IMG/VR virus record: IMGVR_UViG_3300031853_000001
Location: 32,001 to 96,000 of that record
DNA from: a virus
Taxonomy: Duplodnaviria; Caudoviricetes
DNA length: 64,000 nucleotides
Direction: 5' to 3' (one strand)
In this document: in pieces, positions 11,103 through 31,112 of the stretch
Position numbering within the stretch: position 1 is the stretch's first letter
How the letters are laid out: each line of letters begins with the position of its first letter
Made by a program: the position numbers and the translations under genes
Notes under the pieces: generated by a model
What the model was told of the DNA's origin: nothing
Databases searched by the model: none
Seen by the model: only the letters and a program-made list of their open reading frames with translations

Positions 11103-11489
11103 ATGACTAACAACAAAATGACCTTCACCCCTCAACAGATTGATGCCGCTTACATTAACTCTCTTGTTGACCTTGTGAATGCTTGCCGTTACCGTCACAT
11201 CGAAATTGACAAGGTGCGCTACTACCAAAATGGTTGGCATGTAACCTTCGCGGAACATCCGCACGCAGATGCTGTCTGTCATGATGGAAGTTATGGTAGT
11301 CCTTGCTACATGGCGAATTATCTTAGTCAAGGGTATGACAACGACTGGTCGCGCTCTGGCTCTTGGGAGACTATTGGCTTCCCTTGGGACTATGGTGATG
11401 TTAGCGTCCATACCGCGGAAGAACTCACGTTCTATCTATGGTCTTTGAACAATGGTAAAACTCCATGGGAAGAAAACGAGGACTGTTAG
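11103..11489 (+). CDS. hypothetical early protein
   Basis: own promoter; 128 aa; terminator overlapping stop. Confidence 0.75.
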   Translation: MTNNKMTFTPQQIDAAYINSLVDLVNACRYRHIEIDKVRYYQNGWHVTFAEHPHADAVCHDGSYGSPCYMANYLSQGYDNDWSRSGSWETIGFPWDYGDVSVHTAEELTFYLWSLNNGKTPWEENEDC

Positions 11490-11566
11490 TCCTCGTTCTT
11501 CTTATTTTACCTTTGTTAATTTAATTTCCCGGCTATTTTATTTTACCTTCCATTAATATTACCTTT

Positions 11567-11749
11567 TTAATAGAAAAAATGAGGGATAATGAAAATTAAA
11601 ATAAAACTTAAAATCATAATTATAATTTCAATTATGCATTTACCACAAATTTTTATAAACTTTTCAATATCCCGAAATGTCAATCTATAAAACCACATTT
11701 TAATTTTATATTGAAAACTTTTTCTTCTTTTATAATCTTGATAGCGCAT
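11567..11749 (-). CDS. small membrane protein (inverted unit)
   Basis: AAGGAGG SD on minus strand; hydrophobic C-terminus. Confidence 0.65.
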   Translation of the reverse strand: MRYQDYKRRKSFQYKIKMWFYRLTFRDIEKFIKICGKCIIEIIIMILSFILIFIIPHFFY

Positions 11750-11980
11750 CCCGAAACCTCCCTCCTTTTATACATATATTATACTATAAACTAATTTCAA
11801 AATCAAATCATTTTTAAAGTTTTTATTATGACATTTTTTAGACAATCCCAAAACTTATATAATTTAAATCTATGTAAATTATAACATACGGATATTTTAT
11901 TTTACATAAAAATAACTTGACATTTCATTTTAAATTTGCTATAATAATTCCAGAAACAAACGAAAGGGGATTTTCCTAAA

Positions 11981-12121
11981 ATGACAGTTTATGCTATTGA
12001 TTGTAATGGTTTTCAAGGTTCTTCCTATTATCGCACGCGAGAAGAGGCGCAAAATGCGGCAAATTGGCGCACGTATTGCACAGGAATGAAATGGGATGTT
12101 AAGGAAATATTAATTCCTTAA
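11981..12121 (+). CDS. 46-aa micro-protein (paralog of 13849-13992)
   Basis: MTVYAIDCNGFQGSSYYRTREEAQNAANWRTYCTGMKW; promoter and SD; below ORF-track cutoff. Confidence 0.75.
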   Translation: MTVYAIDCNGFQGSSYYRTREEAQNAANWRTYCTGMKWDVKEILIP

Positions 12122-12283
12122 TTTCAATTTCAAATTGCGAAACATAAAAAGTTTCGCAATTTCATTTTAAATTCCTGTTAATTAAACCTCACGTATAATC
12201 TAATTAATAATCATTTAACTTGACATTTCATTTTAATTTTGATATAATATATCCAGAAAAAGAACAGAGGAGGAAATCCTAAA

Positions 12284-12412
12284 ATGCGCGAATGGAATGA
12301 ATTGACAGATGAGGAGCAGGTTCGGCTTTGGTGGGAATACGATGCTAATTCAGGAGAAGAAATTTCATTTTCTGAATTTGACGAAATGATGCAAGGGATT
12401 TACTTTGAGTAA
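12284..12412 (+). CDS. 42-aa acidic micro-protein
   Basis: GAGGAGG SD; MREWNELTDEEQVRLWWEYD...; terminator overlapping stop. Confidence 0.7.
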   Translation: MREWNELTDEEQVRLWWEYDANSGEEISFSEFDEMMQGIYFE

Positions 12413-12546
12413 ATCCCTTAATTTCATTTTTCTTTTACTTTTATTTTCCTAATTTTTAATTTAATTTTCAAATCCCAAAATTAAATCTATGTAAATTAAA
12501 TAACCCGGTTTCTGTAATTAACATAATTTCAAAATAAAACCGTATG

Positions 12547-12735
12547 TTAAACATACGGCGCGAAAATATTTTCCAAATCCCGAATCTCATGAGGATAATA
12601 CAGCACGTAGATTTCCATATAGCCAGGCGCGGGCCAATGCTCTTCACACTCATAATCAAAACCGTAATCATCCAACTGTTCAAACAGGCCGTCCAGCGCG
12701 GAGTTCAGTTCAACGGCATAGCACTTTCTTTTCAT
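12547..12735 (-). CDS. acidic hypothetical protein (inverted unit)
   Basis: minus-strand promoter at ~12770-12800 and GAGG SD. Confidence 0.7.
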   Translation of the reverse strand: MKRKCYAVELNSALDGLFEQLDDYGFDYECEEHWPAPGYMEIYVLYYPHEIRDLENIFAPYV

Positions 12736-12916
12736 TTCAAATTACCTCGCTCTCTTAATTTCTGTAATCATTATAGCACAGCAATCCCGAAATGTCAAGT
12801 TAAACAATTGTAAAATATAATATCCGTATTTTTTATTTTACTTCTTTTTAACTTGACATTTTAAAATAATTTTGGTATAATAATTATAGAAAAAAGAGAG
12901 AGGAGAAAATCCCAAA

Positions 12917-13180
12917 ATGAAGAAGATTATTGTTATCACTCTGATTATCGCTCTGTGCCTGACTCTTACCGCGTGCCAGGTCGGCAACCGCAAAATCGGT
13001 TTTGATACTACGCAGACTTTCCATTGGGCCATCATTCAGATGGGAAATGGTGAACTAATTGAAGGCCCAGTGGATTCGTGGCGAGATTTTAACGAATCTG
13101 ACGCAGTCCAGATTACTATTAATGGTATTACCTATCTGACGCATTACTCCAACGCCATCCTCGCAACCGAGAAGCCTTAA
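12917..13180 (+). CDS. small lipoprotein
   Basis: signal peptide MKKIIVITLIIALCLTLTAC with lipobox LTAC. Confidence 0.75.
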   Translation: MKKIIVITLIIALCLTLTACQVGNRKIGFDTTQTFHWAIIQMGNGELIEGPVDSWRDFNESDAVQITINGITYLTHYSNAILATEKP

Positions 13181-13304
13181 CGGTTTCTCGGTTATTTTTA
13201 TATTAATTATATAATCCGGAATTTATATTTTACTATTATTTAACTTGACTTATTAAAATATATTTGATATACTATATATAAGATAAAGAGAGGAGATTAC
13301 CACT

Positions 13305-13616
13305 ATGATGCCTATTTATGATGCCGATACTCTTCGCAAAGTTTCTTCTGATGCTCGTCTTGCCGAGTTCAATTATGTTAGAGATAACTATGTTCCAAAA
13401 GCACTTTGCAAAATAAATGAAGCTAATTTCACCGCAGCCAATGCCGGGCGGAGTTTTTCCCATGAAAAACTTAATTTGCTTGTTATGGGTCTTGCTACAG
13501 AAGAATCGCAAAACTATCTTAGAATTGGACTAAAAACAGAATTAGAAACATTAGGACTAAAAGTTGATATAGTCATGCGGCCAAATGGCATGATGGAAAT
13601 TACTTGTAGATGGTAA
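13305..13616 (+). CDS. hypothetical early protein
   Basis: promoter, GAGGAG SD, terminator. Confidence 0.7.
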   Translation: MMPIYDADTLRKVSSDARLAEFNYVRDNYVPKALCKINEANFTAANAGRSFSHEKLNLLVMGLATEESQNYLRIGLKTELETLGLKVDIVMRPNGMMEITCRW

Positions 13617-13848
13617 AATTGCGGGTAACCGCAATTTCATTTTAATTTTATGTAAATTAGATTAAACGGGAATTTTATTTTACTTTCCTTTAACTTTTGT
13701 CAATTTCATTTTGTTTTATACATCCTAAAACTAATGTTAATTTCATATTAAATCTCCTATTTCTTATTGACAATTTTATTTTCTTTTGGTATAATATAAT
13801 TGTTCCAAAGAGAACAACAATCAATCCCGAAAGAGAGGCAATTTCAAA

Positions 13849-13992
13849 ATGTATAAGTTCGCAATCTTTTGTATCACTGGTTTGCAGGGCTCTTCCTATT
13901 ATTCTACCCATGAAGAGGCGCTTAACGCCGCGCGTTTCCGTACTAATTGCACCGGATTGCCGTGGTATGTTTCCGCAATAAAGGTTAGGTAA
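13849..13992 (+). CDS. 47-aa micro-protein (paralog of 11981-12121)
   Basis: MYKFAIFCITGLQGSSYYSTHEEALNAARFRTNCTGLPW. Confidence 0.75.
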   Translation: MYKFAIFCITGLQGSSYYSTHEEALNAARFRTNCTGLPWYVSAIKVR

Positions 13993-14124
13993 CTAACCTT
14001 TTTAATTTTATGTTAATTACATAACCCGGATAATCTAATTTCCTTACTTTTAACACTCAAACTTATTGACAATACATATTATATGTGCTATAATAAATAC
14101 ATCAAAAGCAAGGAGGTTCCAATC

Positions 14125-14310
14125 ATGAACATGCCGCTTTACTCCATTGATTACATCGTAACCGCTACCAATACCGCCACTTATCAGTATTTTTATACTA
14201 CTCACGACGCGCGCAACTTTCTTTGGAATAATCGTAACAAAATTCATGATGTAATTATTTATCTGTTTGGTTCTATGACAGAAATCAGCGAAAAAGATTT
14301 GCGGGATTAA
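14125..14310 (+). CDS. hypothetical early protein
   Basis: AAGGAGG SD before ATG 14125. Confidence 0.7.
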   Translation: MNMPLYSIDYIVTATNTATYQYFYTTHDARNFLWNNRNKIHDVIIYLFGSMTEISEKDLRD

Positions 14311-14439
14311 CCCGCATTTCTTTTTTATCGTTATGTTAATTAAATTGTCCGGGCTACCTAATTTACACAAATATAACTTGCATTTATGCCAATTCTATGC
14401 TATAATATATACAAGATAAAGAAAGGATGGTAATACACA

Positions 14440-14622
14440 ATGACGGTTAAAGAATTGATGGAAGTTTTTGAGTGCTATGAAAAACTGTGGGGCGAAAAGT
14501 TCACATCTCTGCCGATTGTGACAGTTGGCCACGATGCAAACGGTGAACGACAGTATAACATTCCAGTAACTGATTACACCTTCAATATTGAAGATAACGA
14601 CTTTACCCTTTGGGACAATTAA
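14440..14622 (+). CDS. hypothetical early protein
   Basis: promoter, SD, terminator. Confidence 0.7.
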   Translation: MTVKELMEVFECYEKLWGEKFTSLPIVTVGHDANGERQYNIPVTDYTFNIEDNDFTLWDN

Positions 14623-14788
14623 GCGCGCAAGCGCTTAATTTTTTAATATAATGTAAATTACAATGTCCGGGTCTTTTAATTTATATATATTTTACATTCC
14701 ATAGATATTTTTTACTATTGACAACTATTAAAAAATATGATAAAATAGTCTTGTAGTTGAGGGAATAAAGCATAAAGGAGTGTATCAT

Positions 14789-14998
14789 ATGTATACTGTC
14801 TATGATTGCAAGGATGAATACCGCGCCACTTTTTACTCTAAAGAGGAAGCTTTTTCCGCCGCAATTAATCATTGCGTTACGGAAGGACTTTATGTTAATA
14901 ATGTCCTCTCCGACATTGAAGATTCCTTCACAATCATTTACCTTGACCCGGATGATAATAGCCCGCAAGAAATCGCGATTTATAAGGTGTGCGAATAG
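14789..14998 (+). CDS. hypothetical early protein
   Basis: AAGGAG SD; terminator with stop in loop. Confidence 0.7.
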   Translation: MYTVYDCKDEYRATFYSKEEAFSAAINHCVTEGLYVNNVLSDIEDSFTIIYLDPDDNSPQEIAIYKVCE

Positions 14999-15135
14999 CA
15001 CACCTTTTATTATTAAATAGATGTTAAATAAAATACCCGGCCAGTCTATTTTCCAAACCTTTAACATACATACCTATTGCAAAAAGTCTGTGCATATGCT
15101 ATAATATACTCAACAAAGCAAAGGAGGGCACCACA

Positions 15136-15276
15136 ATGAAGTACATCGTAGTGAACATGACCACCAAAGAGCAGATTATTTGCACGACTCGCCGCGAGGG
15201 CCGCGACCTTGCAGAACGTCTGAGCATTGAAACCACTTGTCTCTGGTTTCTGATGATTGTCCCCGAAGGCGCATAA
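15136..15276 (+). CDS. 46-aa micro-protein
   Basis: AAGGAGG SD; MKYIVVNMTTKEQIICTTRREGRDLAERLSIETTCLW. Confidence 0.7.
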   Translation: MKYIVVNMTTKEQIICTTRREGRDLAERLSIETTCLWFLMIVPEGA

Positions 15277-15376
15277 GCGCCTTTTTTATTATATCTGTGT
15301 AAATTAAATTACCCGGCACTTATAGTTTACGATTATTTAACTTGACTTCTTTTATGCTCTATGCTATAATAGACTT

Positions 15377-15552
15377 GTCGAAAGGAAGAAAGGAGTGTTG
15401 AGAGATGGAGCCACCCTACTAATGCAAGGGGTAATGTCTGACATGGCGGGCGTAGGACATCCCCACTTACAAAGGGAACCGACCCGCGGCAGGAGTGGCG
15501 CACTGACCGCGAACGAGCCAACCGCGCGGAGTAGCTAACCGCGCGGCTTTTA
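15377..15552 (+). ncRNA. candidate small structured RNA (only a 5-codon ORF, MEPPY)
   Basis: consensus promoter at 15342-15370, GC-rich body, terminator ccgcgcgg..ccgcgcgg-TTTT, no real ORF. Confidence 0.5.
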
Positions 15553-15662
15553 TTATACTAATGTTAATTATAATTCCCGGATACTCTAATTTACCATCTT
15601 TTAACTTGACAGTTTTAGCGCCACATGCTATAATAAGGTATCAAATGAAGGAGGTAACCAAC

Positions 15663-15839
15663 ATGAACAAACCCTATTGCTTAATCTATCGCCGCTTTAA
15701 TTTCCCTGAGGTTGAACGGTATTTCTCACGCGAAATTGATATGGAAGGTTACATCAATATTTGGTTTGATGACGATGTAGATTACATCCACTTCTTTTAT
15801 TGGAATGTGGAATACACCCCGACATGGTGGGCCGAGTAA
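15663..15839 (+). CDS. hypothetical early protein
   Basis: AAGGAGG SD before ATG 15663. Confidence 0.7.
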   Translation: MNKPYCLIYRRFNFPEVERYFSREIDMEGYINIWFDDDVDYIHFFYWNVEYTPTWWAE

Positions 15840-15961
15840 TCGGCCTTTTATATTTATGTTAATTAAAATACCCGGAATTTCTAAATAACGAACAATTAAC
15901 TTGCTTTTTCTTAGTTCCTATGCTATAATATACTTACAAAAAGGAAAGCGAGGTCAATCTT

Positions 15962-16210
15962 ATGAAGTATTTCATGGTAATGTGCCACCGTGGGCATTGT
16001 GGAACAGGTCACAGCACTGAAATTAAGTTTGCAATTCGCGCGGATAATCTTTTAGAAGCTTGTGATAAAGCACGGAAAATGCCGAGCGTTAAACATACAA
16101 GATTGGCAATTTACGGAAAAGAAATAACCGAACAAGAATATCATGAATACAGACAAATAAGCGCTTATCAAAGATTTAATCAAACAAGCACAAAAAGAAA
16201 ATGGCATTAA
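15962..16210 (+). CDS. hypothetical protein (CHRGHCG motif)
   Basis: promoter, SD, terminator; possible metal-binding His/Cys motif. Confidence 0.7.
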   Translation: MKYFMVMCHRGHCGTGHSTEIKFAIRADNLLEACDKARKMPSVKHTRLAIYGKEITEQEYHEYRQISAYQRFNQTSTKRKWH

Positions 16211-16335
16211 GCCATTTTCTTATTTTAATTATATGTAAATTAAACTATCCGGATATTCTATTTTACCAATAGTTAACTTGACAATTATCTTTCTATGTAT
16301 TATAATATATACAGAAATTGAGAGGAGGCAACCCC

Positions 16336-16554
16336 ATGAAACAGATTAACAAAGTGCAGGCCCGTAAACTCTACGAACAAAAAAAGCCGTTCATCATTGT
16401 ACCCGCGAATATGCGCCCTGATTCGCAATTCGCTGTCCACATGAAACCCGGTTGGATGTTTCGCAATTTTAACAACTTTTACAACGAATTTTGCTACTAT
16501 AATTGTAATAACCGCGAGGTCGGCCGCTACCCGCGCTTTTACGTGGAGGAATAA
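16336..16554 (+). CDS. hypothetical early protein
   Basis: GAGGAGG SD before ATG 16336. Confidence 0.7.
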   Translation: MKQINKVQARKLYEQKKPFIIVPANMRPDSQFAVHMKPGWMFRNFNNFYNEFCYYNCNNREVGRYPRFYVEE

Positions 16555-16713
16555 TCCTCCACTTTTTTATTAAGTATATGTAAATTAGAATATACGGACA
16601 TTCTAATATACGTAATTTTAACATAGAAAAACTATTGACAAATCAATTTTTTGTGGTATAATAAAATAAAAAACGGTTCAACGACAACGACAACATGAAA
16701 GGAGATTTTCACA

Positions 16714-17004
16714 ATGAGGTTTTTTGAGATTCAGATTCGCCACGTTTTGGTCTATGGTTACATCTACAACAACGGCATGTTTGAAATTAACATGTGGGAT
16801 TTTGATGCCGACGACTATTGGTTCAGGGACGGACGTAAAAAGAACGTTAAGGCCGCGTGGTGTATGATTTACCACATGACGCGCGACATGGACAGGTTTA
16901 ACCACATCTTTGATGAAGATGGAGTTAAGGAAGTTAAGGAAGCTATGGAGCTTTTCTTTGACGAAGACTTGGAAATGTTAAATTTTGATGAAGACTGGGA
17001 ATAG
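16714..17004 (+). CDS. acidic hypothetical protein
   Basis: AAGGAG SD; D/E-rich C-terminus. Confidence 0.7.
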   Translation: MRFFEIQIRHVLVYGYIYNNGMFEINMWDFDADDYWFRDGRKKNVKAAWCMIYHMTRDMDRFNHIFDEDGVKEVKEAMELFFDEDLEMLNFDEDWE

Positions 17005-17284
17005 GCCACGGCCTATTCTTTTTTTAAGCGTATGTAAATTAGAATACCCGGACAATCTAATTTACTCAAATTTAACTTGACTTCTATCGCGTTATATGTT
17101 AAGATAGTATAGAGTAGGTAAGGGAGGTGAGTGTTATGATTCAGTTAAGGAGCGATTAAAGTATGGTTAAGCGCGTATTAAAATCGTGTAAAGTGGCCTG
17201 TGTATCAGGTCTATTAAGCGTGCGTAAAATCTATGTAAGCTTGAGTCCCATGGCTGAAGTTTATTTAACATACTCTTTAATTCC

Positions 17285-17396
17285 AGCTGGAAGCTGGAAG
17301 CTGGAGCTGGAATTAACATACTTTTAACTTGACATGAAGCTGGGAAGCTGGTATAATATAATCAAAAGAAAGGAGCTGTGAGCTGTGAAGAAGCTG
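17285..17396 (+). repeat. cluster of 9 AGCTG motifs woven through a promoter, SD and start of a gene
   Basis: ccagctggaagctggaagctggagctgg...ttgacatgaagctgggaagctggtataat...aaggagctgtgagctgtgaagaagctg. Confidence 0.85.
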
Positions 17397-17636
17397 AACA
17401 TTGTATACGAAATGAAGTTTACTTGTGATGAATGGTTAATTGAGCATATTAACCATGAATGGGAATATGCTCTGGATGAAACAGAAGGAACGGAAACAGA
17501 AGAAGAAATTTTTGAAATTGCTCTCTCTTACGCTCTGGAAGAGAATTATGCTCTTAGTTATAATGAACGTGAAGCAATTTTTTCTCAATCGCATGAAATT
17601 TATAAATGGTGGAAGGAGAACAAAGAAAATGAATGA
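17385..17636 (+). CDS. acidic hypothetical protein
   Basis: GTG start behind AAGGAG; Glu-rich. Confidence 0.65.
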   Translation: MKKLNIVYEMKFTCDEWLIEHINHEWEYALDETEGTETEEEIFEIALSYALEENYALSYNEREAIFSQSHEIYKWWKENKENE

Positions 17637-17787
17637 AGTTATTGAAACACTTTTCCGCGTGCAAGATTCATTGCTTTCTATCAATAATGATATTGAAGAA
17701 CAATTTTCTGACTATTCAAAAACATGTTTGCGTTGTGCATTAGAGGATATTCAAGCAATTTTAGAAGAAGCATCTAACGCGGTTTAA
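17629..17787 (+). CDS. small hypothetical protein
   Basis: AAGGAG SD, ATG 17629 overlapping upstream stop. Confidence 0.6.
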   Translation: MNEVIETLFRVQDSLLSINNDIEEQFSDYSKTCLRCALEDIQAILEEASNAV

Positions 17788-17911
17788 CCGCGTTTTTTTT
17801 ATAATTGTGTTAAATAAAATGCACGGTAATTGTATTTTACATACTTTTAACTTGACTTATCCTCTAAAATTTGATATACTATATTCAGAAAAGGAAAGGG
17901 GATATAAAAGA

Positions 17912-18352
17912 ATGAAAATTTGGTTTGACATGGACGGCACGATTGCGAATCTTTATGGTGTTAATGGTTGGCTTTCCGCGCTTAATGCCTATGACCCTTC
18001 ACCTTATGAGATTGCTAAACCTCTTGTTAATCTTTCCAGACTTGCGCGGTATCTTAATCGATTGCAAGCAATGGGACATGAAATCGGCATTATTTCATGG
18101 CTTTCCAAGTATTCAACCCCAGAATATGACAAACTTGTGACAGATGCTAAAAAGTATTGGCTTTCTTATCATATGCCAAGCGTCAAATGGGATGAAGTCA
18201 TAATTACTTCATATGGGATTAACAAATGGGAAACATGCGGCGCGGGAATTTTGTTTGATGATGAAGAAAAAAACCGCGATGCATGGGGCAATACAGCATA
18301 TGAGCCTAACGAAATTTTTAACGTTCTTATAGAAATGGTTAAGGCGGGCTAA
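17912..18352 (+). CDS. HAD-superfamily phosphatase (5'(3')-deoxyribonucleotidase-like)
   Basis: motif I FDMDGT, motif IV LFDD. Confidence 0.8.
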   Translation: MKIWFDMDGTIANLYGVNGWLSALNAYDPSPYEIAKPLVNLSRLARYLNRLQAMGHEIGIISWLSKYSTPEYDKLVTDAKKYWLSYHMPSVKWDEVIITSYGINKWETCGAGILFDDEEKNRDAWGNTAYEPNEIFNVLIEMVKAG

Positions 18353-18478
18353 CCGCCTTTTCTTTTTTTGAAATTATGTTAATTAAAATTCCCGGGTATT
18401 CAAATTAACAAAAAATTTACTTGACTTTTTATAGAAATTATGGTATTATATTTATAGAAAGTGAAGGGAGAAAGTCAA

Positions 18479-18601
18479 ATGAAAGTTACTTACACAATGA
18501 ATATAAAACTTAGTCCGTGGCTTGTAATTTTTGCTCCATTTGTCGCTTTTTTCTTTGTGTGTTGGGTTAATATAAAATTTCTTTACAAAAACTTAACTTG
18601 A
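18479..18601 (+). CDS. 40-aa membrane peptide
   Basis: own promoter and SD; hydrophobic WLVIFAPFVAFFFVCW. Confidence 0.5.
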   Translation: MKVTYTMNIKLSPWLVIFAPFVAFFFVCWVNIKFLYKNLT

Positions 18602-18674
18602 CTTTCCCTCCCAAATCTGCTATAATAATTCCAGAAAGTGAAGGAAAACACTAAACCAGAAAGGACTAACACCT

Positions 18675-19076
18675 ATGAGTAAGGCATCTCTTGAAACCGA
18701 AATCCGCAACAACGTCCTCCAGACCATCATCGACGCGGTGAATCCCATTAGCGACATTCTCCCGATTAGTGCCAGCGAACTCGCCCTCCCCATTGTGGAT
18801 AGTGAGGGCAACGAAAAGTTCGCCGTTATCAAGGTGAGTATTCCTCGCGGTGAGCGCGACGGTAACGGCGGTTATATCCCCTTTGATGGCTACGCCGCCG
18901 CCGAAGATTGGAAACTTGTGCTTGCCGAGCGCGCAGATAAGGCGGCAAAGCGTAAGGAAAAGGCAGAGCGTGCCGAAAAGGAAAAGGAACGCAAGCGCGC
19001 GGCGCGCAAGGTTGTAAAAGACCTTAACACTGTAGGATTTAAGGCGCTTGTATCCCAGCCGATTGAGGGTGAGTAA
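18675..19076 (+). CDS. hypothetical protein with K/A/E-rich helical tail (family B)
   Basis: similar layout to 24688 and 28539; conserved leader. Confidence 0.75.
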   Translation: MSKASLETEIRNNVLQTIIDAVNPISDILPISASELALPIVDSEGNEKFAVIKVSIPRGERDGNGGYIPFDGYAAAEDWKLVLAERADKAAKRKEKAERAEKEKERKRAARKVVKDLNTVGFKALVSQPIEGE

Positions 19077-19200
19077 TCACCCTCTTTTTTAATTATATGT
19101 AAATTATACTAACCGGATACTTTATTTTACTCAATCTTAACTTGACTTCTGCGTATGAATAGTGTATAATATACGCAGAAAGACAGAAAGGAAGAACATT

Positions 19201-19356
19201 ATGCTGATTTTTAGTATTATTCTTTTTGTTTGGGGTTTTCTTGGTATTTGCGGATTGATAAATTGTAAAAAAGAAAGAATAATTTGGGAGCTTTTAATTT
19301 TTGGGATTACCATACCTTTTCTGCCAGTTATTGCCAAACTTTGTGGTTTAATATAA
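19201..19356 (+). CDS. small two-TM membrane protein
   Basis: promoter, SD, hydrophobic. Confidence 0.6.
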   Translation: MLIFSIILFVWGFLGICGLINCKKERIIWELLIFGITIPFLPVIAKLCGLI

Positions 19357-19422
19357 TCTTAACTTGACTTCTACGTGTAGATGGTATATACTATATATAG
19401 AAAATGAAGGGAGATTATAAAT

Positions 19423-19608: not shown

Positions 19609-19664
19609 CTTGACTTCTTCTCTCCAATATGATATAATAATTTCAGAAAGTGAGGGGAAACGAA

Positions 19665-20187: not shown

Positions 20188-20440
20188 TTCTCCCAATTTC
20201 ATTTTAAATCAATGTAAACTAAAATACCCGTCAATTTCAATTTACAAACCTTTAACCTAACCGGGTATTGACATTTCATTTCAATTCTGATATAATAAAT
20301 ACAGTTGAGGGCGAGGAAAGAAAATCCTAAAACTGCCCAAAACTTCACAAAGAATTAACTTGACATTATAAGCACAACGTGCTATAATGAATATACAAAA
20401 AAGAGAAGGAAACTCTTAAAAACCAGAAAGGGTAATAATT

Positions 20441-20779: not shown

Positions 20780-20909
20780 GCATAAGAAAATGGGCGAAAG
20801 CCCATTTTCTTTTAAGCTAATGTAAATTACACTGTCCGGGTTTTGTATTTTACTAACTCTTAACACGCAAAACTCTTGACTTTTTGTGGGAGTTCTGCTA
20901 TAATATATC

Positions 20910-21062: not shown

Positions 21063-21138
21063 GGGAGTGTAGCTCAGTTGGAAGAGCACCAGACTTTTAA
21101 TCTGGGTGTCGCGGGTTCGATCCCCGCCACTCTCACCA
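21063..21138 (+). tRNA. trnK: tRNA-Lys(UUU)
   Basis: acceptor GGGAGUG/CACUCUC, D arm gctc/gagc, anticodon stem ccaga/tctgg with loop CUUUUAA, T loop GUUCGAU, encoded CCA; own promoter. Confidence 0.97.
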
Positions 21139-21331: not shown

Positions 21332-21420
21332 CTCTTAACTTGACATTATAGCCGATTGGTGCTATAATAAATACATCAAAGGGAAGGAAAACCCAACAAA
21401 CCAGAAAGGAACACAACACT

Positions 21421-21750: not shown

Positions 21751-21892
21751 GAAAAGCCCTTCGGGGCTTTTCTTTTTTTATTAAGGATAAGTTAATTAAA
21801 ATGCCCGGTCAATTTAATTAATAATCATTTAACTTGACAAATAGTTTTATTAATGATATACTAAATATAACAAAAGAAAGGGGCTTACACTA

Positions 21893-22351: not shown

Positions 22352-22518
22352 AGTAGTGGTTCGCCGCTACTTTAATTTTATATTAATTTCATTTTCCGGG
22401 CAGTCTAATTTACGCATACTTAACATAAAAACCTATTGACAAAAACCCTAACCCCATGTTATAATATACCCACAAGGTGAAGGGAAACACCAGACAAACC
22501 AGAAAGGAACTTTGAACT

Positions 22519-23511: not shown

Positions 23512-23783
23512 GCCCTTTCTTTTTATTAAACCAACGTTAATTAAAAATCCCGGACAGTGTATTTTACTTACGTTTAACACAAAAAAGTATTGACAAAATA
23601 CGGAAATTCTGATATACTATTCTTGTCGAAAGGGGAAAGGGAAACCGCGTCGTGCGCGTCCCGTGGCGGCGGAATCCCTCCCAATCGCAACAAAATCTTA
23701 ACTTGACATTACATCACAAACGTGATATAATGAATACACAACAGAGGAAGGAAAACCTCAACAAAACCAGAAAGGGAAATACT

Positions 23784-24185
23784 ATGAAGAACACTCTGAC
23801 TCGCGTTGACGCTCTGAACTACGCTATTGCCGCCGTGACCAACTCCACCGAAGTGCTGACTAATCCCGATGAAATCGTGGACGTGCTGACCAAGATTCGC
23901 GACCAGATTGCGAAGCCCCGCAAGACCAGCGACGAAGCCAAGGCGAAGGCCAAGGACAAGCGTGCCAAGGCTCGCACCGCTCTGATGGAGCAGGTTCTGC
24001 CCATCATCCGCGAAGCCGTTGCTGATGGCGGTACCGCCAAGGAAATTTACGAGCGCTGTGCTAACGCTCTGCCCGAGGACTTCACCGTCGCCAAGGTACA
24101 GTATATTCTGCTCCATGAGATGGCGGGCGAGGTTGTAAAGACCGAAGCCAAGGGCAAGCCCAACGTCTACACGATGAAGGGTTAA
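23784..24185 (+). CDS. small winged-helix-like protein (family A)
   Basis: TAKEIYE..LPEDFTVAKVQYILLH..EVVK..KGKPNVY. Confidence 0.7.
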   Translation: MKNTLTRVDALNYAIAAVTNSTEVLTNPDEIVDVLTKIRDQIAKPRKTSDEAKAKAKDKRAKARTALMEQVLPIIREAVADGGTAKEIYERCANALPEDFTVAKVQYILLHEMAGEVVKTEAKGKPNVYTMKG

Positions 24186-24325
24186 TAAAGAGGGCGAAAG
24201 CCCTCTTTTAATTTAATTAAATGTTAATTACAGTACCCGGCATTTTTAATTAACCAAATATTTACTTGACTTTATTCAATTTCTATGTTATAATATATAT
24301 AGAAAAAAGAAAGGGGATACCGATT

Positions 24326-24538
24326 ATGGCTATCAACATTCGTCACACCTACGCCACCCATGTCACTGTTGTTTTCTACGATGACGATGCAGGAATTTCT
24401 CTACGCTATGATGATTGTGGCTCTATGGACGACATTGCCGAGCAGGTATGTGAAGTTCTGGTTAAGCATAATTTTTCTTACGCGGATGTGTGCTCCGCTG
24501 AAACTGGTGAAGTCCTAATGACGATTGAACGAACTTAA
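24326..24538 (+). CDS. acidic hypothetical protein
   Basis: promoter, SD; ETGEVL motif. Confidence 0.7.
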   Translation: MAINIRHTYATHVTVVFYDDDAGISLRYDDCGSMDDIAEQVCEVLVKHNFSYADVCSAETGEVLMTIERT

Positions 24539-24687
24539 CGAGGTTAATACCTCGTTAACTATAGCATCCGGTCATTTTAATTTACTCACAATTAACAGAA
24601 AAAAGTATTGACAAAATCCCAAATTTCTGCTATACTATATACATCAAGTGAAGGAAAACACTTACAAACCAGAAAGGGAAAAACACT

Positions 24688-25023
24688 ATGAAGATTTCCA
24701 AGGCTATCGTCGATTCCAACATCCGCACCGCTATCTTTTCCGCTCTGAACGTCGCTAACATCGAAGGCTTCCACAAGATTAACGACCGTCAGTATGGTTG
24801 CATCGTCGAGGATGTAAACGGCGAACGCCGTTACGCTCGCGTCGGTGTTATCGTCGCAGAGCAGCGGGAGGATGTTACCGCGGACGAACTGATGGCGTCC
24901 GAAATCGCGGACTATGAGGACAAGCAGGCAAAGAAGGCCGAGCGTGCCGCCGCTCGTGCGGAAAAGGCCGCCAAGGATAGGGCGAAGCGTGAAGCCGCCA
25001 AGAAAGAAAAGGAAGGGGATTAA
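24688..25023 (+). CDS. hypothetical protein with K/A/E-rich tail (family B)
   Basis: IVEDVNGERRYA vs IVDSEGNEKFA in 18675; conserved leader. Confidence 0.7.
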   Translation: MKISKAIVDSNIRTAIFSALNVANIEGFHKINDRQYGCIVEDVNGERRYARVGVIVAEQREDVTADELMASEIADYEDKQAKKAERAAARAEKAAKDRAKREAAKKEKEGD

Positions 25024-25166
25024 CCCTTCCTTTTTAATTATATGTTAATTATATCGCCCGGCTATTTTTATTTACACTCTTTTAACTTGACAAATTTGCC
25101 TATATAGTATATACTATATACATGAAGTGAAGGAAAACACTTACAAACCAGAAAGGAAAAAGAAGA

Positions 25167-25844
25167 ATGTTTAAGTATGAGCAGGAGATTCAGCAGGCTA
25201 ACAAGATTTATCAGGAGCAGTATCAGATTTGCAAGGATGCTTGCAAAGACATGCTTGGAGAGGAAGATTTTATTTATTCCGAAGATGAAGCAATGTGTCG
25301 TTTTATCGCATTTGGTGATGGAGAGTGCATTATTGAAGGATATGAAAACGAAAAGGGAAGTCTTTCGTCTAACGCACGTATAGCCATTAAAAAGTATTAT
25401 GACTTTGTTGAAGGCGAAGGTTATGTTCGTGTAAAAGAGTCCAATCTCTTTTCTATTGAAAGTCTTTTCCCTGCCGCGTCGCTTCCTGTTAAGGAATTTG
25501 ATTTTGCTAATGGCGAAGCCGATTGTCCCGGCCTTTATTTCCTTGGCATGATTGGCCGCAATCCTAATGGTGAAGATTTTTATCTTGTGAAAATCGGTTG
25601 CGCTAAAAACATTAAAGAACGTGTAAATCAATATAGATCTTACAACCCTATGATTTATCATAATAATATTATTTATTGCCCTAATATTGATTTGAGAGAA
25701 GCAGAAAAACAGGCACACCGTGCGCTTGCCGACCTTGCGATTGCTCGCGCTGCTCATGCCATGGAATGGTTTTATGTTGATAAAGAAACTTATTTTGCTC
25801 TGTGTGAAAATCCTTGGCAATATATTTTTGAGGAAGAGGCGTAA
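25167..25844 (+). CDS. T5orf172/GIY-YIG-like domain protein
   Basis: GLYF...VKIG..NIKERVNQY..EKQAH..EWF. Confidence 0.7.
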   Translation: MFKYEQEIQQANKIYQEQYQICKDACKDMLGEEDFIYSEDEAMCRFIAFGDGECIIEGYENEKGSLSSNARIAIKKYYDFVEGEGYVRVKESNLFSIESLFPAASLPVKEFDFANGEADCPGLYFLGMIGRNPNGEDFYLVKIGCAKNIKERVNQYRSYNPMIYHNNIIYCPNIDLREAEKQAHRALADLAIARAAHAMEWFYVDKETYFALCENPWQYIFEEEA

Positions 25845-25963
25845 GCCTTTTCTTTTTAAAAGAAAAGTTAATTAAAATAACCGGACAATTTAAATAACAC
25901 GCTTTTAACTTGACATTTTTCTATATTTCTGTTATACTATATCTAAAGAAAGGGGAATTGTCA

Positions 25964-26161
25964 ATGAAAGTAAAAGATATTGTCGCTCGCGCGCAACAGC
26001 ATATTTCCATTAAAAACGTATTGATTAGAAATGCAAATATGAAAACTTTGCTTTACTTCGGGCCTATCAATACTATTCCCGCTCAATTTCTTAACAAAGA
26101 AGTTACTTGTTATCTTTACAATTCTTCGCGCAAACTTTTCATTTTGAAAATCACCACTTAA
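25964..26161 (+). CDS. basic hypothetical protein
   Basis: promoter, SD, terminator. Confidence 0.6.
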   Translation: MKVKDIVARAQQHISIKNVLIRNANMKTLLYFGPINTIPAQFLNKEVTCYLYNSSRKLFILKITT

Positions 26162-26294
26162 AAGAACGATTATTCGTTCTTTTAAATTTCTGTAAACTAT
26201 ATCGCCCGGTAATTTTAGTTAATTAAATCTTAACTTGACTTCTATTATTTTACATGATATAATAATACCATCAAGTGAAGGGAGACTAAATAAT

Positions 26295-26504
26295 ATGAGA
26301 ATTACTTGGACTGAAACACACACCATTGAAATTGATGACACTTGGATTAAGGAAATTTTTTCTGAAAATACTTCTGAAGATGCAAGAAACATTATTGAAA
26401 ATAATATGTATGAGATTATATATGAGGTTGAGCGCGCGAACATTTTCCAATACATAAATAATTGGAATGAAATTATTGATTCCATTTGCCAGAAGAATAA
26501 TTAA
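26295..26504 (+). CDS. acidic hypothetical protein
   Basis: GGGAG SD before ATG 26295. Confidence 0.65.
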   Translation: MRITWTETHTIEIDDTWIKEIFSENTSEDARNIIENNMYEIIYEVERANIFQYINNWNEIIDSICQKNN

Positions 26505-26579
26505 CCGAATCTTAACTTGACTTTTCCAGCGAACAGGATTATAATATATACAGAAAGAAACGAAAGGGGATTTCACAGT

Positions 26580-26825
26580 ATGGCAATTTACGTTGTCTTT
26601 TCCAACTACTTTAACAGCGGTGTTTTCGGCACCTATTCCAGCGTCAAGCGTGCCCGCATTGCGTTTGAGCACTTCCTCGCGGAAGATGAGGACATTGTGG
26701 CTTTTGAGGATCTCGGCGGCTATTCCTACCAGTTCACTACCAAGATCGGTGAAACCTTCGGTGCGGAAATTGACTTTGATGTTCTTGATGCCGAATTTGT
26801 TGAGGGAGTTTGTAAGGAGGGTTAA
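26580..26825 (+). CDS. hypothetical protein
   Basis: promoter, SD. Confidence 0.7.
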   Translation: MAIYVVFSNYFNSGVFGTYSSVKRARIAFEHFLAEDEDIVAFEDLGGYSYQFTTKIGETFGAEIDFDVLDAEFVEGVCKEG

Positions 26826-26831
26826 TAATTT

Positions 26832-27017
26832 ATGAATTGTCTTAAATGTGGTCATACCTTTGCCGGTCCTGATTGTTATAGCACTGAACAGGATGGCGAT
26901 TCTTATACCAACTACATAAGTGCCTATTGCCCTTGGTGCCGCAAGTGGTTTGAATGGATGGAGATTTTCACACTTTCGGAAATCACCCCACCAGAAGAAA
27001 TGGAAGGAGAAGAATAA
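26832..27017 (+). CDS. small zinc-ribbon protein
   Basis: CLKC...CPWC; paralog of next ORF. Confidence 0.7.
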   Translation: MNCLKCGHTFAGPDCYSTEQDGDSYTNYISAYCPWCRKWFEWMEIFTLSEITPPEEMEGEE

Positions 27018-27020
27018 ATT

Positions 27021-27221
27021 ATGAAGTGTCCGAATTGCGGAAATGACGTTTTCTTTGATGAAGTAGTAGACACCGAATATTATACTGGTACACACATTGA
27101 TATTGGTTATGGCACGTGTTCAAAGTGTCATAAAGATTGGGGATGGAGTGAGGTTTTCACTTATTCTAAAGATATTGACATCGAAGAGATGCCGCCCTTG
27201 CCTAATAACGACCATCTTTGA
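27021..27221 (+). CDS. small zinc-ribbon protein
   Basis: CPNC...CSKC; W.E.FT motif shared with 26832. Confidence 0.7.
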   Translation: MKCPNCGNDVFFDEVVDTEYYTGTHIDIGYGTCSKCHKDWGWSEVFTYSKDIDIEEMPPLPNNDHL

Positions 27222-27303
27222 TGGTCGTTAATTTTATATTAACTACAATTCCCGGACAATTTAATTTACACAACTATAAAAAAATAAGCGCCTAAGCGCT
27301 TAT

Positions 27304-27831
27304 TCACCATCTTTCCGTAACTTCCTCAGACATAGCATAATCAATCAAGCAAGCCTTTCCGTCACGGATTCCCCAATTATAAGAATGAATATCTTTATTA
27401 AATTCTGTCACCCAATTAAATTCATCTTCGGTCAGATAATAATCAATATAATGCCCCTTATGCAACCTACCACCTACATGCTTAATTCGCGGCATAATCA
27501 TAAAATAATAACCCTGATATTCAATAAGCGTAGGTTCAGCCAATAAGTAATCATAGCCCGCTTCTTTGGCTTTCATAAAAGCCTTGTGTTCATCTGCGCA
27601 ACCACCACATTCATAAGCGCATTCTTTATCATAATCCCACTTAATAACATAATCAGAGGTAATCAACGCGATTCACGCAACACCATAATTAAAAAGAACT
27701 TTCCTATGCTTATAAGCATTATAACGCCAAACCGCCTCTTGCGCATCGTATTTATCAGTCAAACAATTACAAATATAAGGGAAAATGTCCTTCAAAAACT
27801 TTGCGGCGCGAATACGATAATCAGACTTCAT
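27304..27831 (-). pseudogene. protein-kinase-like (APH/RIO fold) gene with in-frame TGA at 27673-27675
   Basis: SD and ATG at 27831 read in frame to YGVA*IALITSDYVIK; DIHSYN and IDYA motifs downstream; paralog has GATR at this position. Confidence 0.7.
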
Positions 27832-27958
27832 ATTGATTAACCCCTTTCGTTTTTCTAATATAATTATACAGATAATCCGCTATTTTGTCAAGTTAAAATT
27901 ATGTAAACTACATAATACGTGTACTTTAATTTACACAACTTTAAAATAAAATCCTAAC

Positions 27959-28192
27959 TCAAAGAGTTAGGAAATAAATATTCATTACTATTAAAGCCAA
28001 CCGCATAACCACATTATTAATATGCGGCTTTGTGTGCAAATCCCATATCAAGCCCACCACATTAACAGGCAAGCCAACCCACGCGCCACGATTCCATGCG
28101 ATTATTGCGATTGTGTTAAGTATGGCAAAAATTGCCACTAAATCCATTCGCTCAAACTGATAAGGCGTGGTGATACTGAAAAACTTTTTCAT
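27959..28192 (-). CDS. small membrane protein
   Basis: hydrophobic 77 aa, coupled to upstream ORF. Confidence 0.65.
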   Translation of the reverse strand: MKKFFSITTPYQFERMDLVAIFAILNTIAIIAWNRGAWVGLPVNVVGLIWDLHTKPHINNVVMRLALIVMNIYFLTL

Positions 28193-28413
28193 TCTTCATA
28201 CCTCGTTAAATCATTTTGTGAACGTTGAAAATCAGCATATCCATTCATATAAAAACTTTTATATACTCTAACTGTATAGAATACATAATTAGTTTTTTCA
28301 AACCTAACATCAACTTCTTCAAGTGGGTCAATCTCAATTTTGACGATATAACCATAAATCGGTTTTCCATCTACATTACTAATAAAAGATACCTTATCGC
28401 CAATATTAAACAT
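28189..28413 (-). CDS. hypothetical SH3/KOW-like small protein
   Basis: FNIGDKV start motif; minus-strand promoter and SD. Confidence 0.6.
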   Translation of the reverse strand: MFNIGDKVSFISNVDGKPIYGYIVKIEIDPLEEVDVRFEKTNYVFYTVRVYKSFYMNGYADFQRSQNDLTRYEE

Positions 28414-28538
28414 ATTTTATTTACTCCCTTCATTTGATACTCTAATTATATACTATCCGCGCGCGATTGTCAAGTTAAATAATAATAAATTAAATTACCC
28501 GGGCATTTTAATTAACATACAATTAAAAAAAAGAAGGC

Positions 28539-28862
28539 TTACGCCTTCTTCTCCTTGGCCTTGGCTACCTTAGCAGCCTTCTCAGCTTCCTTGGCCGCCT
28601 TGTTATCAGCCTTGACCCTCTTCTCGGCTTCCCACTCCTGCGCGGCCTCAAAGGGGTCAAACGCCTTGGATACCTTGGTGTCCTTGTAAGCCTTGGACTT
28701 AACAGAAACTTCCGTCCAAACTTCCTGACCGTCAACGACTTGTAGGATAGCAAAGGAACCGTCCGCGAACTTCACGGCCTCATTCTCCATCAGAGAAGGC
28801 ATGATCGCGGCAATAGTCATCTGGCGAGCGGTGGACTTGATTTCGTTAGCATTCATAGACAT
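28539..28862 (-). CDS. hypothetical protein with K/A-rich tail (family B)
   Basis: AFDPFEAAQEW vs PFDGYAAAEDW in 18675; variant of conserved leader. Confidence 0.7.
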   Translation of the reverse strand: MSMNANEIKSTARQMTIAAIMPSLMENEAVKFADGSFAILQVVDGQEVWTEVSVKSKAYKDTKVSKAFDPFEAAQEWEAEKRVKADNKAAKEAEKAAKVAKAKEKKA

Positions 28863-29093
28863 AGTGTAAACCCTTTCTCGTTTTTAGGAGTTTCGTTCTC
28901 CTCTTGATGTATCCATTATAGCAGAGTTTCAGCGGAATGTCAAGTTAAAACTTTGTTAAGTCTTGCTTATCCGTCCTTGCCACTCTTGCCCCTTGGATTG
29001 ATTTAATTATACATCCAAATCCAAGAAAAGTCAAGTTAAACATATGTGAATTAGAAAGACCGGGTAGTTTAAATAACATAAAATTAAAGTGGG

Positions 29094-29447
29094 CTATTCG
29101 CCCACTTTAACCCATTCCATTTCTTTCCAATCATATTCATACAAGCCCACTTCATCCCACGGCAATTCATAGCCAAAATAAGAATAAATCAGTTTTCTAA
29201 CTTCGTGAGAAACAATTTTCTTTACACGAATCTTTTCGCATCTCTCGAAAGCATATTTAATAGCGTATAGACCCTGTTCTACTTCATTCAAGAAAATCCA
29301 AATATACGCACCATTTTTCCCAAAAAAATCATAAGCATTAAAAAATTCGTTCAACAAATCAAAGGCTTTGCTCTCATATTCTTCACATTCTTCCAAATTA
29401 TCAAACTCGGTATCATCATAAGCAACATAAGTAATAATTTCACGCAT
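29094..29447 (-). CDS. hypothetical protein
   Basis: YVAYDDTEFD..EC..YE motif common in phage proteins; own promoter. Confidence 0.7.
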   Translation of the reverse strand: MREIITYVAYDDTEFDNLEECEEYESKAFDLLNEFFNAYDFFGKNGAYIWIFLNEVEQGLYAIKYAFERCEKIRVKKIVSHEVRKLIYSYFGYELPWDEVGLYEYDWKEMEWVKVGE

Positions 29448-29622
29448 AACTCATATCTCCCTTGCTTTTCTACATATATAATATCATAAACCCAACCCAA
29501 AGTCAAGTTAAATAATTATAAATTAAAATATCCGGGCACCCTAATTAACACACAATTAACTTGCTTTTTCTTTATTGATATGCTATACTATATACATCAA
29601 ATGAAAGAGAGGTAACACTTCT

Positions 29623-30339
29623 ATGATTGACAAACGCAAGCATTATTATTTGGTTCTTGACACCGAAACCGCGAACGGTTTAGACGATGCTCTTGTATAT
29701 GATTTGGGCGGTTGTGTCGTTGATAAGTCCGGCATAATCTATGCACAATTTTCTTTCACTATTCGCGACATTTTTGTCTATGAGCGCGAAATGATGCGTA
29801 CCGCCTACTATGCGGATAAAATTCCTTCTTATGTGAAGGAACACCATGAGGGCACGCGCAAGATGGTAAGTTTTTACGATGCCCGGCAATATGTTCTCGC
29901 GTTGATGCACGAATACAACATTACAGATGTTTGCGCATATAATGTCAACTTTGACAGGAACGCGCTAAACACAACTCAAAGATGGCTCACCAAGTCCAAG
30001 TATAGGTATTTCTTCCCGCGCAATACTAACTTTATCTGTATTTGGAATATGGCTTGCCAAACCCTTTGCCAGCGCAAAACTTATAAAGAGTTTTGTGAAG
30101 CTAACAACTTTACAAGCAATCGCAAAGGCGCGCCCGATGCCCGCAATTATAGCACAAGTGCGGAAACGGTTTATAGGTATTTGATACTCAATGCCGAATA
30201 TGAAGAGGAACACAAAGGCATTGATGATGTAAAAATTGAAACTTACATTTTTGCCCGTTGTATCGCCGCGCATAAGGCTTTCCCGTATGGCAAAGGAATA
30301 AGACGGAATTGTTGGATGGACGTTAAGAGAACGGTTTAA
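29623..30339 (+). CDS. DEDDh 3'-5' exonuclease (paralog of 22519)
   Basis: VLDTETA, AYNVNFD, HKGIDDVKIE; shared TSAET.YRYL. Confidence 0.85.
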   Translation: MIDKRKHYYLVLDTETANGLDDALVYDLGGCVVDKSGIIYAQFSFTIRDIFVYEREMMRTAYYADKIPSYVKEHHEGTRKMVSFYDARQYVLALMHEYNITDVCAYNVNFDRNALNTTQRWLTKSKYRYFFPRNTNFICIWNMACQTLCQRKTYKEFCEANNFTSNRKGAPDARNYSTSAETVYRYLILNAEYEEEHKGIDDVKIETYIFARCIAAHKAFPYGKGIRRNCWMDVKRTV

Positions 30340-30428
30340 CCGTTCTCTTTTTTATTAAACATATGTAAACTATAATGCCCGGATATTTTAATTTACATAT
30401 AATTAAAATTAAAGAGGAAAACTCCTCT

Positions 30429-31112
30429 TTAAATAATATTTAATGCCATTAATATTTTTTTCCACAAAGGTGCTAAATGAAAACGCACACTATAATTATA
30501 ATGCTGTTGTATAAGTTTCTTTTCCTCTTCATAGCTTTGAACAAGTTGCAAATAAGATTGATTTATCTTTTTTAATTCTTCAATTTCCTTTTCTTGTTTT
30601 TTATTAATAGTTGCATAATTAATAACTTGTTCAGTCATTGTTTTATCATGCTTATATATTTTATCATATTCATTTTTATTTATATAAAAACGATTATCAT
30701 TTTTTGTATTTTGAGCTAATTTAATAAGTTCATCCATTCTATTAACATCAAAAATTTGCCAAGGATTTTTACACAATTCAAAATATATAGGTTCACTAAC
30801 ATAATACCATTCGCGGCTATAAGAAGGAAGCCCTATTGCAAGCAACTCCAACATTAAATGAGCATAAGTTTCCATGTCATAACCTTTGGGAATAGGTAAT
30901 TTTTTAGTTAAGATATGATGCTCTTGATGAAATAGTTGGCAACTATGGGTTTTATATTGTTTAATACGTCTTGACAAATCTCCGCCCCAGCCAATTTTAA
31001 CAGAACATAACAATTCTCCATCCGGAGTAAGACCACGCTCTCCGAAAAAATATATACCACTATCATGATTATCACATGTAATATTATTGTTACTTAAAAC
31101 TTTCAATGCCAT
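30429..31112 (-). CDS. T5orf172/GIY-YIG-like domain protein with coiled-coil tail
   Basis: GIYF..VKIG..RRIKQY..EWYYV..YFELCKNPWQIF, matching 25167 (YFALCENPWQYIF). Confidence 0.7.
   Translation of the reverse strand: MALKVLSNNNITCDNHDSGIYFFGERGLTPDGELLCSVKIGWGGDLSRRIKQYKTHSCQLFHQEHHILTKKLPIPKGYDMETYAHLMLELLAIGLPSYSREWYYVSEPIYFELCKNPWQIFDVNRMDELIKLAQNTKNDNRFYINKNEYDKIYKHDKTMTEQVINYATINKKQEKEIEELKKINQSYLQLVQSYEEEKKLIQQHYNYSVRFHLAPLWKKILMALNII

Follow-up and report, generated by a model that had tools for sequence, protein, structure and literature searches.

The 64,000-nucleotide (nt) stretch of viral DNA analysed here, called the window below, comprises bases 32001-96000 of a 180,932-base-pair (bp) virus record (IMG/VR: IMGVR_UViG_3300031853_000001) rated complete by CheckV. 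Its early region of ~21 kb carries one 52-bp palindrome over and over, at almost every boundary between small early genes, and this palindrome array is the subject of our analysis. A portal gene, HNH homing endonucleases and a sigma-like gene adjoin the array region. The portal is only ~29% identical to portals of Enterococcus, Bacillus and Lactococcus phages, and by this similarity the phage is not T4-like; a megablast search revealed no matching known phage. Strong Shine-Dalgarno sequences together with TTGACA-17-TATAAT promoters suggest a Firmicutes host. Transfer RNA (tRNA) was the sole match of an Rfam search.

A search with a 33-nt core pattern, allowing up to three mismatches, revealed 75 matches over both strands (window 10486-31214), which correspond to 39 sites; 0.01 matches were expected from shuffled sequences. 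The full 52-bp sites span 10477-31224, and none was found in the remaining 160 kb of the genome; relatives have 29-42 sites apiece in a comparable region. A weight matrix separated the sites (above 20 bits) cleanly from the background (below 5 bits). The conserved unit reads TTAA-N5-TGTWAATTA-nA-N4-CCGG-N4-Tn-TAATTWACA-N5-TTAA, with a centre that is more widely [C/A]CG[G/T] and in which the central CG is invariant. The ~24 conserved positions form a symmetric pattern across the 52 bp, each with its mirror partner, while the intervening positions drift. The consensus departs from symmetry only in a T preceding the left GT and a C following the right TTAA, the latter being part of the following promoter. 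A search of the full-text literature revealed no description of such a palindrome array.

The symmetry does not reflect base pairing between the arms. At variable mirror positions the half-sites were complementary no more often than expected by chance (158 sites of five phages, the set used for the site counts below), which points to a symmetric protein on duplex DNA and not to an RNA or DNA hairpin. Individual sites are only ~63% self-complementary, palindromy existing at the level of the consensus only, and cruciform extrusion is unlikely for this reason.

The usual order of a unit is a terminator, the site, a TTAAC fused to a TTGACA-17-TATAAT promoter, a ribosome-binding site and a small gene. 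Between 11 and 32 kb, ~50 matches to the promoter consensus scored at least 10/12, and terminator-like hairpins, four-fold above the expectation from shuffles, adjoin the sites. The units encode proteins of 40-330 amino acids (aa), most of them without a Pfam or PHROG match. About a dozen array promoters have no full site and retain only its promoter-proximal quarter, TTWAC-N7-TTAAC; they mostly lie right behind a stop codon or the tRNA-Lys gene, with no terminator in front.

The position of the promoter relative to the palindrome is quantised. Of the -35 hexamers, 108 begin 27 nt from the centre, 26 at 37-39 nt, two at 48-49 nt and four at 62-63 nt, and altogether 138 of the 158 sites have a promoter at such a distance, in steps of 11 bp. 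The 11 nt added in the 38-nt class are constant in length, but their sequence varies. With a 17-nt spacer, the site centre comes to lie near -62, -73 or -84 from the transcription start, that is, one or two helical turns apart. An earlier note on this DNA had argued that the sites do not behave like an operator, which would track promoters; the spacing contradicts this. Both a two-fold symmetric duplex consensus and a fixed promoter distance with helical-turn alternatives, as known from operators, are present here, and in its geometry the spacing matches factors that contact RNA polymerase along one helical face. CRP at class I sites and protein p4 of phage phi29 act on RNA polymerase from upstream operators at ~-60 to -80. 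The array is similar in that a palindrome lies upstream of the -35 box, centred at ~-62 or one to two turns further, and in that one site serves divergent promoters; it differs in the length of the site (52 bp) with its five conserved blocks, in the ~40 copies, some of them without a promoter, and in a partner protein that is putative. On balance, we consider it likely that the palindrome is the binding site of a symmetric, probably phage-encoded protein at ~40 early promoters, and that homologous recombination between its copies shuffles and inverts the cassettes.

The distribution of the sites over the gene junctions is consistent with this reading. All seven units that had been described as inverted are present on the minus strand, each with its own promoter. 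Each of the four convergent junctions of the window (11514, 12490, 27237, 30364) displayed one site between two terminators. A single site, flanked on either side by a promoter at 27 nt from its centre, was confirmed at the divergent junctions at 12809 and 29517, and the remaining two (11749/11981 and 31112/31822) also have one site apiece, making four of four. As scored from the sequence, no promoter of 10/12 or more adjoins the four convergent sites, in line with the proposed lack of antisense promoters there. Beside the 18 convergent sites of the five phages, the best hexamer pairs reached a median of 8/12, like the terminator sides of tandem sites, compared with 10-12/12 on promoter sides. 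The full set comprises 120 tandem sites with one promoter, 18 convergent sites without promoter and 13 divergent sites with two promoters, and a divergent junction with two sites was not found in the five phages. If both crossovers of an inversion fall inside sites, one site is left between two terminators and one between two promoters. Inversion of whole units with their own site would leave no site at convergent and two at divergent junctions, an arrangement that was never seen. The argument of the earlier note that recombination at cassette boundaries yields this orientation pattern therefore holds, with a different mechanism as shown below.

The same junctions bear on the possibility that the sites are boundaries or insulators, at which a roadblock protein or a phage type II topoisomerase separates strong units and relieves supercoiling at every type of junction. 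Sides of sites tightly adjoin either a promoter (150) or a predicted terminator (111), with the end of its stem at 20-39 nt from the centre; by the strict terminator predictor used, 55 sides have neither. The sites without promoter are conserved between terminators, the centre is a symmetric, conserved 4 bp, and the phage encodes a GyrA/ParC-like protein. However, the spacing to the -35 box in 11-bp steps speaks for RNA polymerase contact and not for insulation alone, and divergent junctions keep a site although no read-through has to be blocked there. Type II topoisomerases are not known to require ~45 bits of sequence. We regard an insulator as unlikely; the GyrA/ParC-like protein leaves a topological reading open with low probability.

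Conservation of the promoter-less sites was as strong as that of the others. Their matrix scores are equal (42.5 vs 43.4, p = 0.84), and at four orthologous convergent junctions 21-24 of 24 consensus positions of the sites are retained, as against only 8-11 of 20 variable ones, with flanking proteins that are 35-77% identical between phages. This pattern can be due to purifying selection or to constant renewal by conversion, of which we favour selection. Promoter-less copies that are under selection probably still bind the protein, which may serve there as a link in a cooperative chain or as a barrier between units.

Comparison of related arrays showed that the sites are boundaries of cassette exchange, as had been proposed: seven indel crossovers and one inversion breakpoint lie inside sites. 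The orientation of orthologous cassettes was found to vary among relatives. Relative to the conserved backbone, 13 of the 110 reciprocal-best ortholog pairs found in the arrays have changed orientation, including a five-gene block (window 11567-13180) that forms a 1.5-kb inversion in relative G004, and neighbour relations between genes are kept in only about one of nine pairs. The G004 site beside the gene for a conserved 82-aa protein is a chimera: in its left half it matches the corresponding site of phage L070, and in its right half the reverse-complemented site from the block's far end. One breakpoint of the inversion thus lies inside a site and yielded a promoter-less convergent site; no recognisable site was found at the other end of the G004 inversion.

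Seven differences of a single cassette between close relatives (84-96% identity) each oppose a site-cassette-site arrangement to one chimeric site. The switch from left to right parent falls, relative to the centre, into the intervals +3..+18, -13..-5, -25..-15, -8..+6, -18..-6 and -16..-8, and the seventh case is ambiguous. The centre is therefore excluded from five of the seven crossover intervals, in either arm, and included in one. The best-resolved indel (96% identity) left a site whose centre is that of the left parent and which departs from the right parent at +2 and +3. Crossovers inside the 52 bp but at varying points are what homology-driven recombination would produce, in contrast to a conservative site-specific reaction. 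Proximal and distal halves of sites next to orthologous genes in broken contexts showed identities of 0.68 vs 0.64 against a background of 0.60, a weak trend in phages that are too diverged for this comparison.

The earlier note had favoured exchange through the self-complementary CG/CCGG core, which would amount to dedicated site-specific recombination similar to integrons or shufflons. One site per junction in any orientation, order and orientation that vary between relatives, an invariant central CG and the one crossover interval that spans the centre (-8..+6) would agree with such a system. However, the crossovers are scattered over both arms from -25 to +18, and a recombination site does not need a fixed helical phase to promoters. 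Moreover, the complete 181-kb genome contains no Resolvase (resolvase/invertase), Phage_integrase (tyrosine recombinase) or Y1_Tnp (Y1 transposase) domain. Site-specific recombination at the core is therefore very improbable. From the original proposal, exchange and inversion at the sites stand; exchange at a fixed CG core and a dedicated recombinase are not supported. Integron attC, shufflon sfx and invertase hix/gix sites resemble the array as repeated imperfect palindromes that border small cassettes of variable order and orientation, but the array lacks a recombinase, a fixed crossover point and hairpin covariation, and each of its cassettes has its own promoter and terminator. Neither compensatory pairing between arms, as in integrons, nor a serine or tyrosine invertase with exchange at a fixed core, as in shufflons and invertase systems, nor the hairpin covariation and Y1_Tnp domain of REP/BIME-RAYT elements was found. 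A RecA-like recombinase was also not found in the complete genome.

A search for the exact core pattern detected 24 stretches from other IMG/VR contigs. Five relative contigs that were taken whole have 14-42 sites each, in one region each, two of the five being identical in sequence. The centre of the palindrome is lineage-specific, with CCGG in 33 of 33 sites of G001 and ACGT in 26 of 34 sites of G006, and among sites of this first type the base 8 nt from the centre is lineage-specific as well. In other relatives (loci L068, L067, L060, L054 and L051), TGTTAA and TTAACA boxes enclose a GGCCGGCC centre, and the layout is the same. G013, which shares the gene for the 82-aa protein with this phage, carries an unrelated 20-bp palindrome, TTAGATGTTYRAACATCTAA, 39 times within 19 kb (loci L075 and L086+L087). 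Its -35 offsets are 17-19 nt (9 copies), 27-29 nt (17), 38-40 nt (5) and 46-49 nt (3). Both of its convergent junctions hold promoter-less copies, and a single copy is shared at the divergent one. That the geometry is kept while the sequence differs suggests a partner encoded by the phage and co-evolving with its sites.

These lineages are also relevant to a module for recombination without any protein partner, in which the repeat is kept for cassette turnover and its palindromy merely permits inversions. Crossovers inside the repeat and the high turnover of cassettes with ORFan genes (without known relatives) would be expected from it, and the promoter-early stem-loop (PeSL) proposal for T4-type phages is a precedent (Arbiol et al. 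2010, PMC2839356; Comeau et al. 2014, PMC4122927). But ~24 symmetric conserved positions amid drift form a recognition pattern beyond the needs of homology, and three lineages with different palindromes keep the same distance to the -35 box. We therefore find it improbable that the array serves recombination alone.

The 82-aa protein itself (15962-16210, plus strand), contains CHRGHCG...H...C...H as an invariant pattern; its identity is 70-89% in 27 of 28 related contigs and 60% in the remaining one, and the contigs that encode it include ones with different palindromes. As a candidate for the binding protein it was not retained: its model has a predicted local distance difference test score (pLDDT) of 69.5, which is moderate, and no structural match was significant (best E 0.14). 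Among the IMG/VR contigs, the ends of G007 and G009 and those of G010 and G003 overlap by 127 identical bases, and each pair probably represents two pieces of one phage genome.

According to the reading that we prefer, a dimeric or tetrameric DNA-binding protein would sit on the palindrome in the untranscribed gap between a terminator and the next sigma-A-type promoter. From a centre ~62 bp upstream of the start, or one to two turns further, it would act on RNA polymerase at ~40 early promoters. Late shut-off would be its most plausible effect and activation an alternative. Since the array offers ~40 copies of a site that equals its own inverted repeat, ordinary homologous or short-homology recombination between any two of them can delete, insert, move or invert a cassette. 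Where both crossovers of an inversion fall in sites, one promoter-less convergent site and one shared divergent site result. More tentatively, and with less confidence than in the binding site as such, we suggest that a lineage-specific protein occupies all ~40 unit boundaries as a chain along 20 kb that switches the host-takeover region, that the same sites allow exchange independent of recombinase and orientation, and that at least three specificities exist in this phage group.

Several points weigh against a protein acting at the promoters. Descent of the units from a small number of ancestral promoter cassettes could account for part of the quantised spacing, and promoter-less sites could owe their conservation to repeated recombinational conversion and not to function. 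The dozen or so strong promoters that work without a full site imply that the site is not needed for promoter activity as such. Furthermore, the binding protein was not found among the phage candidates checked. The genome has no HU-like protein, which removes an HU/TF1-like binder, and no protein with a ParB_N domain, which removes a ParB/Noc-like one. Three small HTH_3 open reading frames (ORFs) are present without a link to the site, and the HTH_3 protein at window 41733-41930 is absent from the complete type-1 relative G014. The T5orf172 proteins of the array are accessory cassettes, absent from four complete relatives.

That no phage-encoded binder appeared among these candidates would suit a decoy or recruitment array, in which ~40 high-affinity palindromes titrate or recruit a host regulator or nucleoid protein after entry of the DNA. 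The central 14 bp loosely resemble what we take to be the Bacillus Noc and Spo0J sites, in which A/T-rich DNA surrounds CCCGGG or CACGTG. Close phage lineages have different site sequences, however, and a phage-encoded partner explains this more easily; a decoy function is hardly to be expected. The palindrome as the site of a phage-encoded regulator is also reminiscent of KorB, the global regulator of plasmid RK2 with a dozen palindromic operators, some of them far from promoters. In both cases one palindrome occurs many times over a replicon, in some copies at a fixed promoter position and in others away from it. In contrast to KorB, the phage lacks a ParB_N-domain protein and the sequence of the site is unrelated.

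The nearest known system is that of the PeSL elements of T4-type phages. PeSLs are terminator-promoter modules whose copies recombine homologously and thereby shuffle ORFans (PMC2839356, PMC4122927). Both systems have repeated composites of terminator and promoter in a hyperplastic early region that flank single small ORFan genes, and in both, recombination between copies explains insertions, deletions and replacements between close relatives. Correspondingly, we found clustered composites of a terminator and a sigma-70-like promoter, small genes flanked by them and indel crossovers in the repeat. Excised mini-circles during infection are a further feature of PeSLs. The array differs from the PeSLs in that its most conserved part is an extra 52-bp palindrome of the protein-binding type between terminator and promoter, which is also kept at promoter-less convergent junctions. 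Its symmetry allows inversions, of which the excerpts of both papers (PMC2839356, PMC4122927) make no mention.

If our interpretation is true, regulation and evolvability are built into one element: a single sequence would be a putative regulatory site of the early block as well as the substrate for swapping and flipping genes. It would carry PeSL-type exchange beyond the T4-type phages, which infect Gram-negative hosts, into a large uncultured group of phages of 170-185 kb, in which ribosome-binding sites and promoters suggest Firmicutes hosts, and add inversion to the set of PeSL-type outcomes. The palindromes of the different lineages (CCGG, ACGT and GGCCGGCC centres and the unrelated 20-mer) point to a new regulator family with diverged specificity. 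In metagenomic phage genomes the site could help to delimit early genes and possible anti-host-defence cassettes.

The 39 sites were numbered along the window. A plus-strand promoter 27 nt from the centre accompanies the tandem sites 2 (10989-11040), 5 (12167-12218), 8 (13192-13243), 11 (14325-14376; TTGCAT/TATAAT), 14 (15289-15340), 15 (15553-15604), 16 (15848-15899; TTGCTT/TATAAT), 17 (16225-16276), 19 (17024-17075; TTGACT/TAAGAT), 20 (17799-17850), 21 (18368-18419), 22 (19089-19140), 25 (21781-21832), 28 (24213-24264), 30 (25034-25085), 31 (25857-25908) and 32 (26182-26233). The distance is 38 nt for the tandem sites 10 (14002-14053), 13 (15013-15064), 23 (20204-20255), 24 (20812-20863), 26 (22372-22423), 27 (23526-23577) and 29 (24544-24595), 39 nt for site 18 (16570-16621) and 49 nt for site 12 (14643-14694), both tandem. 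At the tandem site 1 (10477-10528) the nearest plus promoter is ~71 nt from the centre, and at the tandem site 9 (13642-13693) a strong promoter is no nearer than 99 nt (13767). Sites 34 (27893-27944), 35 (28475-28526) and 36 (29036-29087) are tandem on the minus strand with a minus promoter at 27 nt; the terminator of the next minus unit lies at the right of site 34.

The four convergent sites, all without promoter, are site 3 (11505-11556), with a plus terminator at its left (11475-11497), site 6 (12481-12532; terminators plus 12393-12419 and minus 12559-12539), site 33 (27228-27279; plus 27206-27230 and minus 27305-27282) and site 38 (30355-30406; plus 30325-30349 and minus 30432-30409), the orthologous site of which is retained in G004. 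Among the divergent sites, site 7 (12800-12851) has 12/12 promoters 27 nt from the centre on each side (minus 12798-12770, plus 12853-12881), and site 37 (29508-29559) has promoters at 27 nt on both sides (minus 29506-29478; plus, TTGCTT/TATACT, from 29561). Site 4 (11864-11915) is the sole site at the junction 11749/11981, with a plus promoter at 27 nt and a weak minus promoter (11806-11778) at ~83 nt. Site 39 (31173-31224), the last of the array, lies at the junction 31112/31822 with a minus promoter at 27 nt and the nearest plus promoter (31333) at 134 nt.

The inverted units, all on the minus strand, comprise 11567-11749 (60 aa), the ortholog of which is flipped in G004; 12547-12735 (62 aa), with orthologs in four relatives, flipped in G004; 27304-27831, with two genes of 120 and 52 aa and a promoter at 27891-27863; 27959-28413, with two genes of 77 and 74 aa and a promoter at 28473-28445; 28539-28862 (107 aa), with an ortholog elsewhere in the G001 array; 29094-29447 (117 aa; promoter 29506-29478); and 30429-31112, which encodes a 227-aa protein with a T5orf172 domain behind a promoter at 31171-31143. 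T5orf172 (GIY-YIG-like) proteins are encoded by two array cassettes, 25167-25844 (plus) and 30429-31112 (minus); in G001 the T5orf172 gene has the opposite orientation, and complete relatives lack it.

Within the early array, the tRNA-Lys(UUU) gene (21063-21138, plus strand) lies downstream of its own strong promoter, with array promoters at 20876, 21015, 21156 and 21340. Besides the tRNA-Lys promoter, three strong promoters at intervals of ~140-185 nt lack an evident ORF and may give rise to small RNAs. Four early transcripts have a conserved leader in common, GTGAAGGAAAACAC...AAACCAGAAAGG, which lies between promoter and start codon (18626-18672, 21368-21414, 24636-24682 and 25115-25161). 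Clusters of an AGCTGGA(A) repeat occur at 31390-31640 and 17290-17325. The former also holds the short inverted repeats TGTCAAGTATTTGACA and TGTCAAATATTTGACA and is followed by a very AT-rich stretch at 31680-31800; this right edge of the array looks like an iteron, origin-like or regulatory region.

Left of the array, an island of 50% G+C at 8000-10000 stands in a genome of ~35% G+C and displays long overlapping frames on both strands (8793-9314 plus, 8796-9398 minus, 9097-9681 plus) without Pfam matches. The 453-aa protein encoded at 6957-8318 (minus strand) matches a phage sigma-factor family and, near its C-terminus, the endonuclease VII family. Three HNH homing-endonuclease genes lie near the array, at 2700-3644, 4716-5660 (minus) and 41927-42832 (plus). 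The GyrA/ParC-like type IIA topoisomerase subunit maps outside the window, to G000 152468-153781, in an 800-aa open frame.

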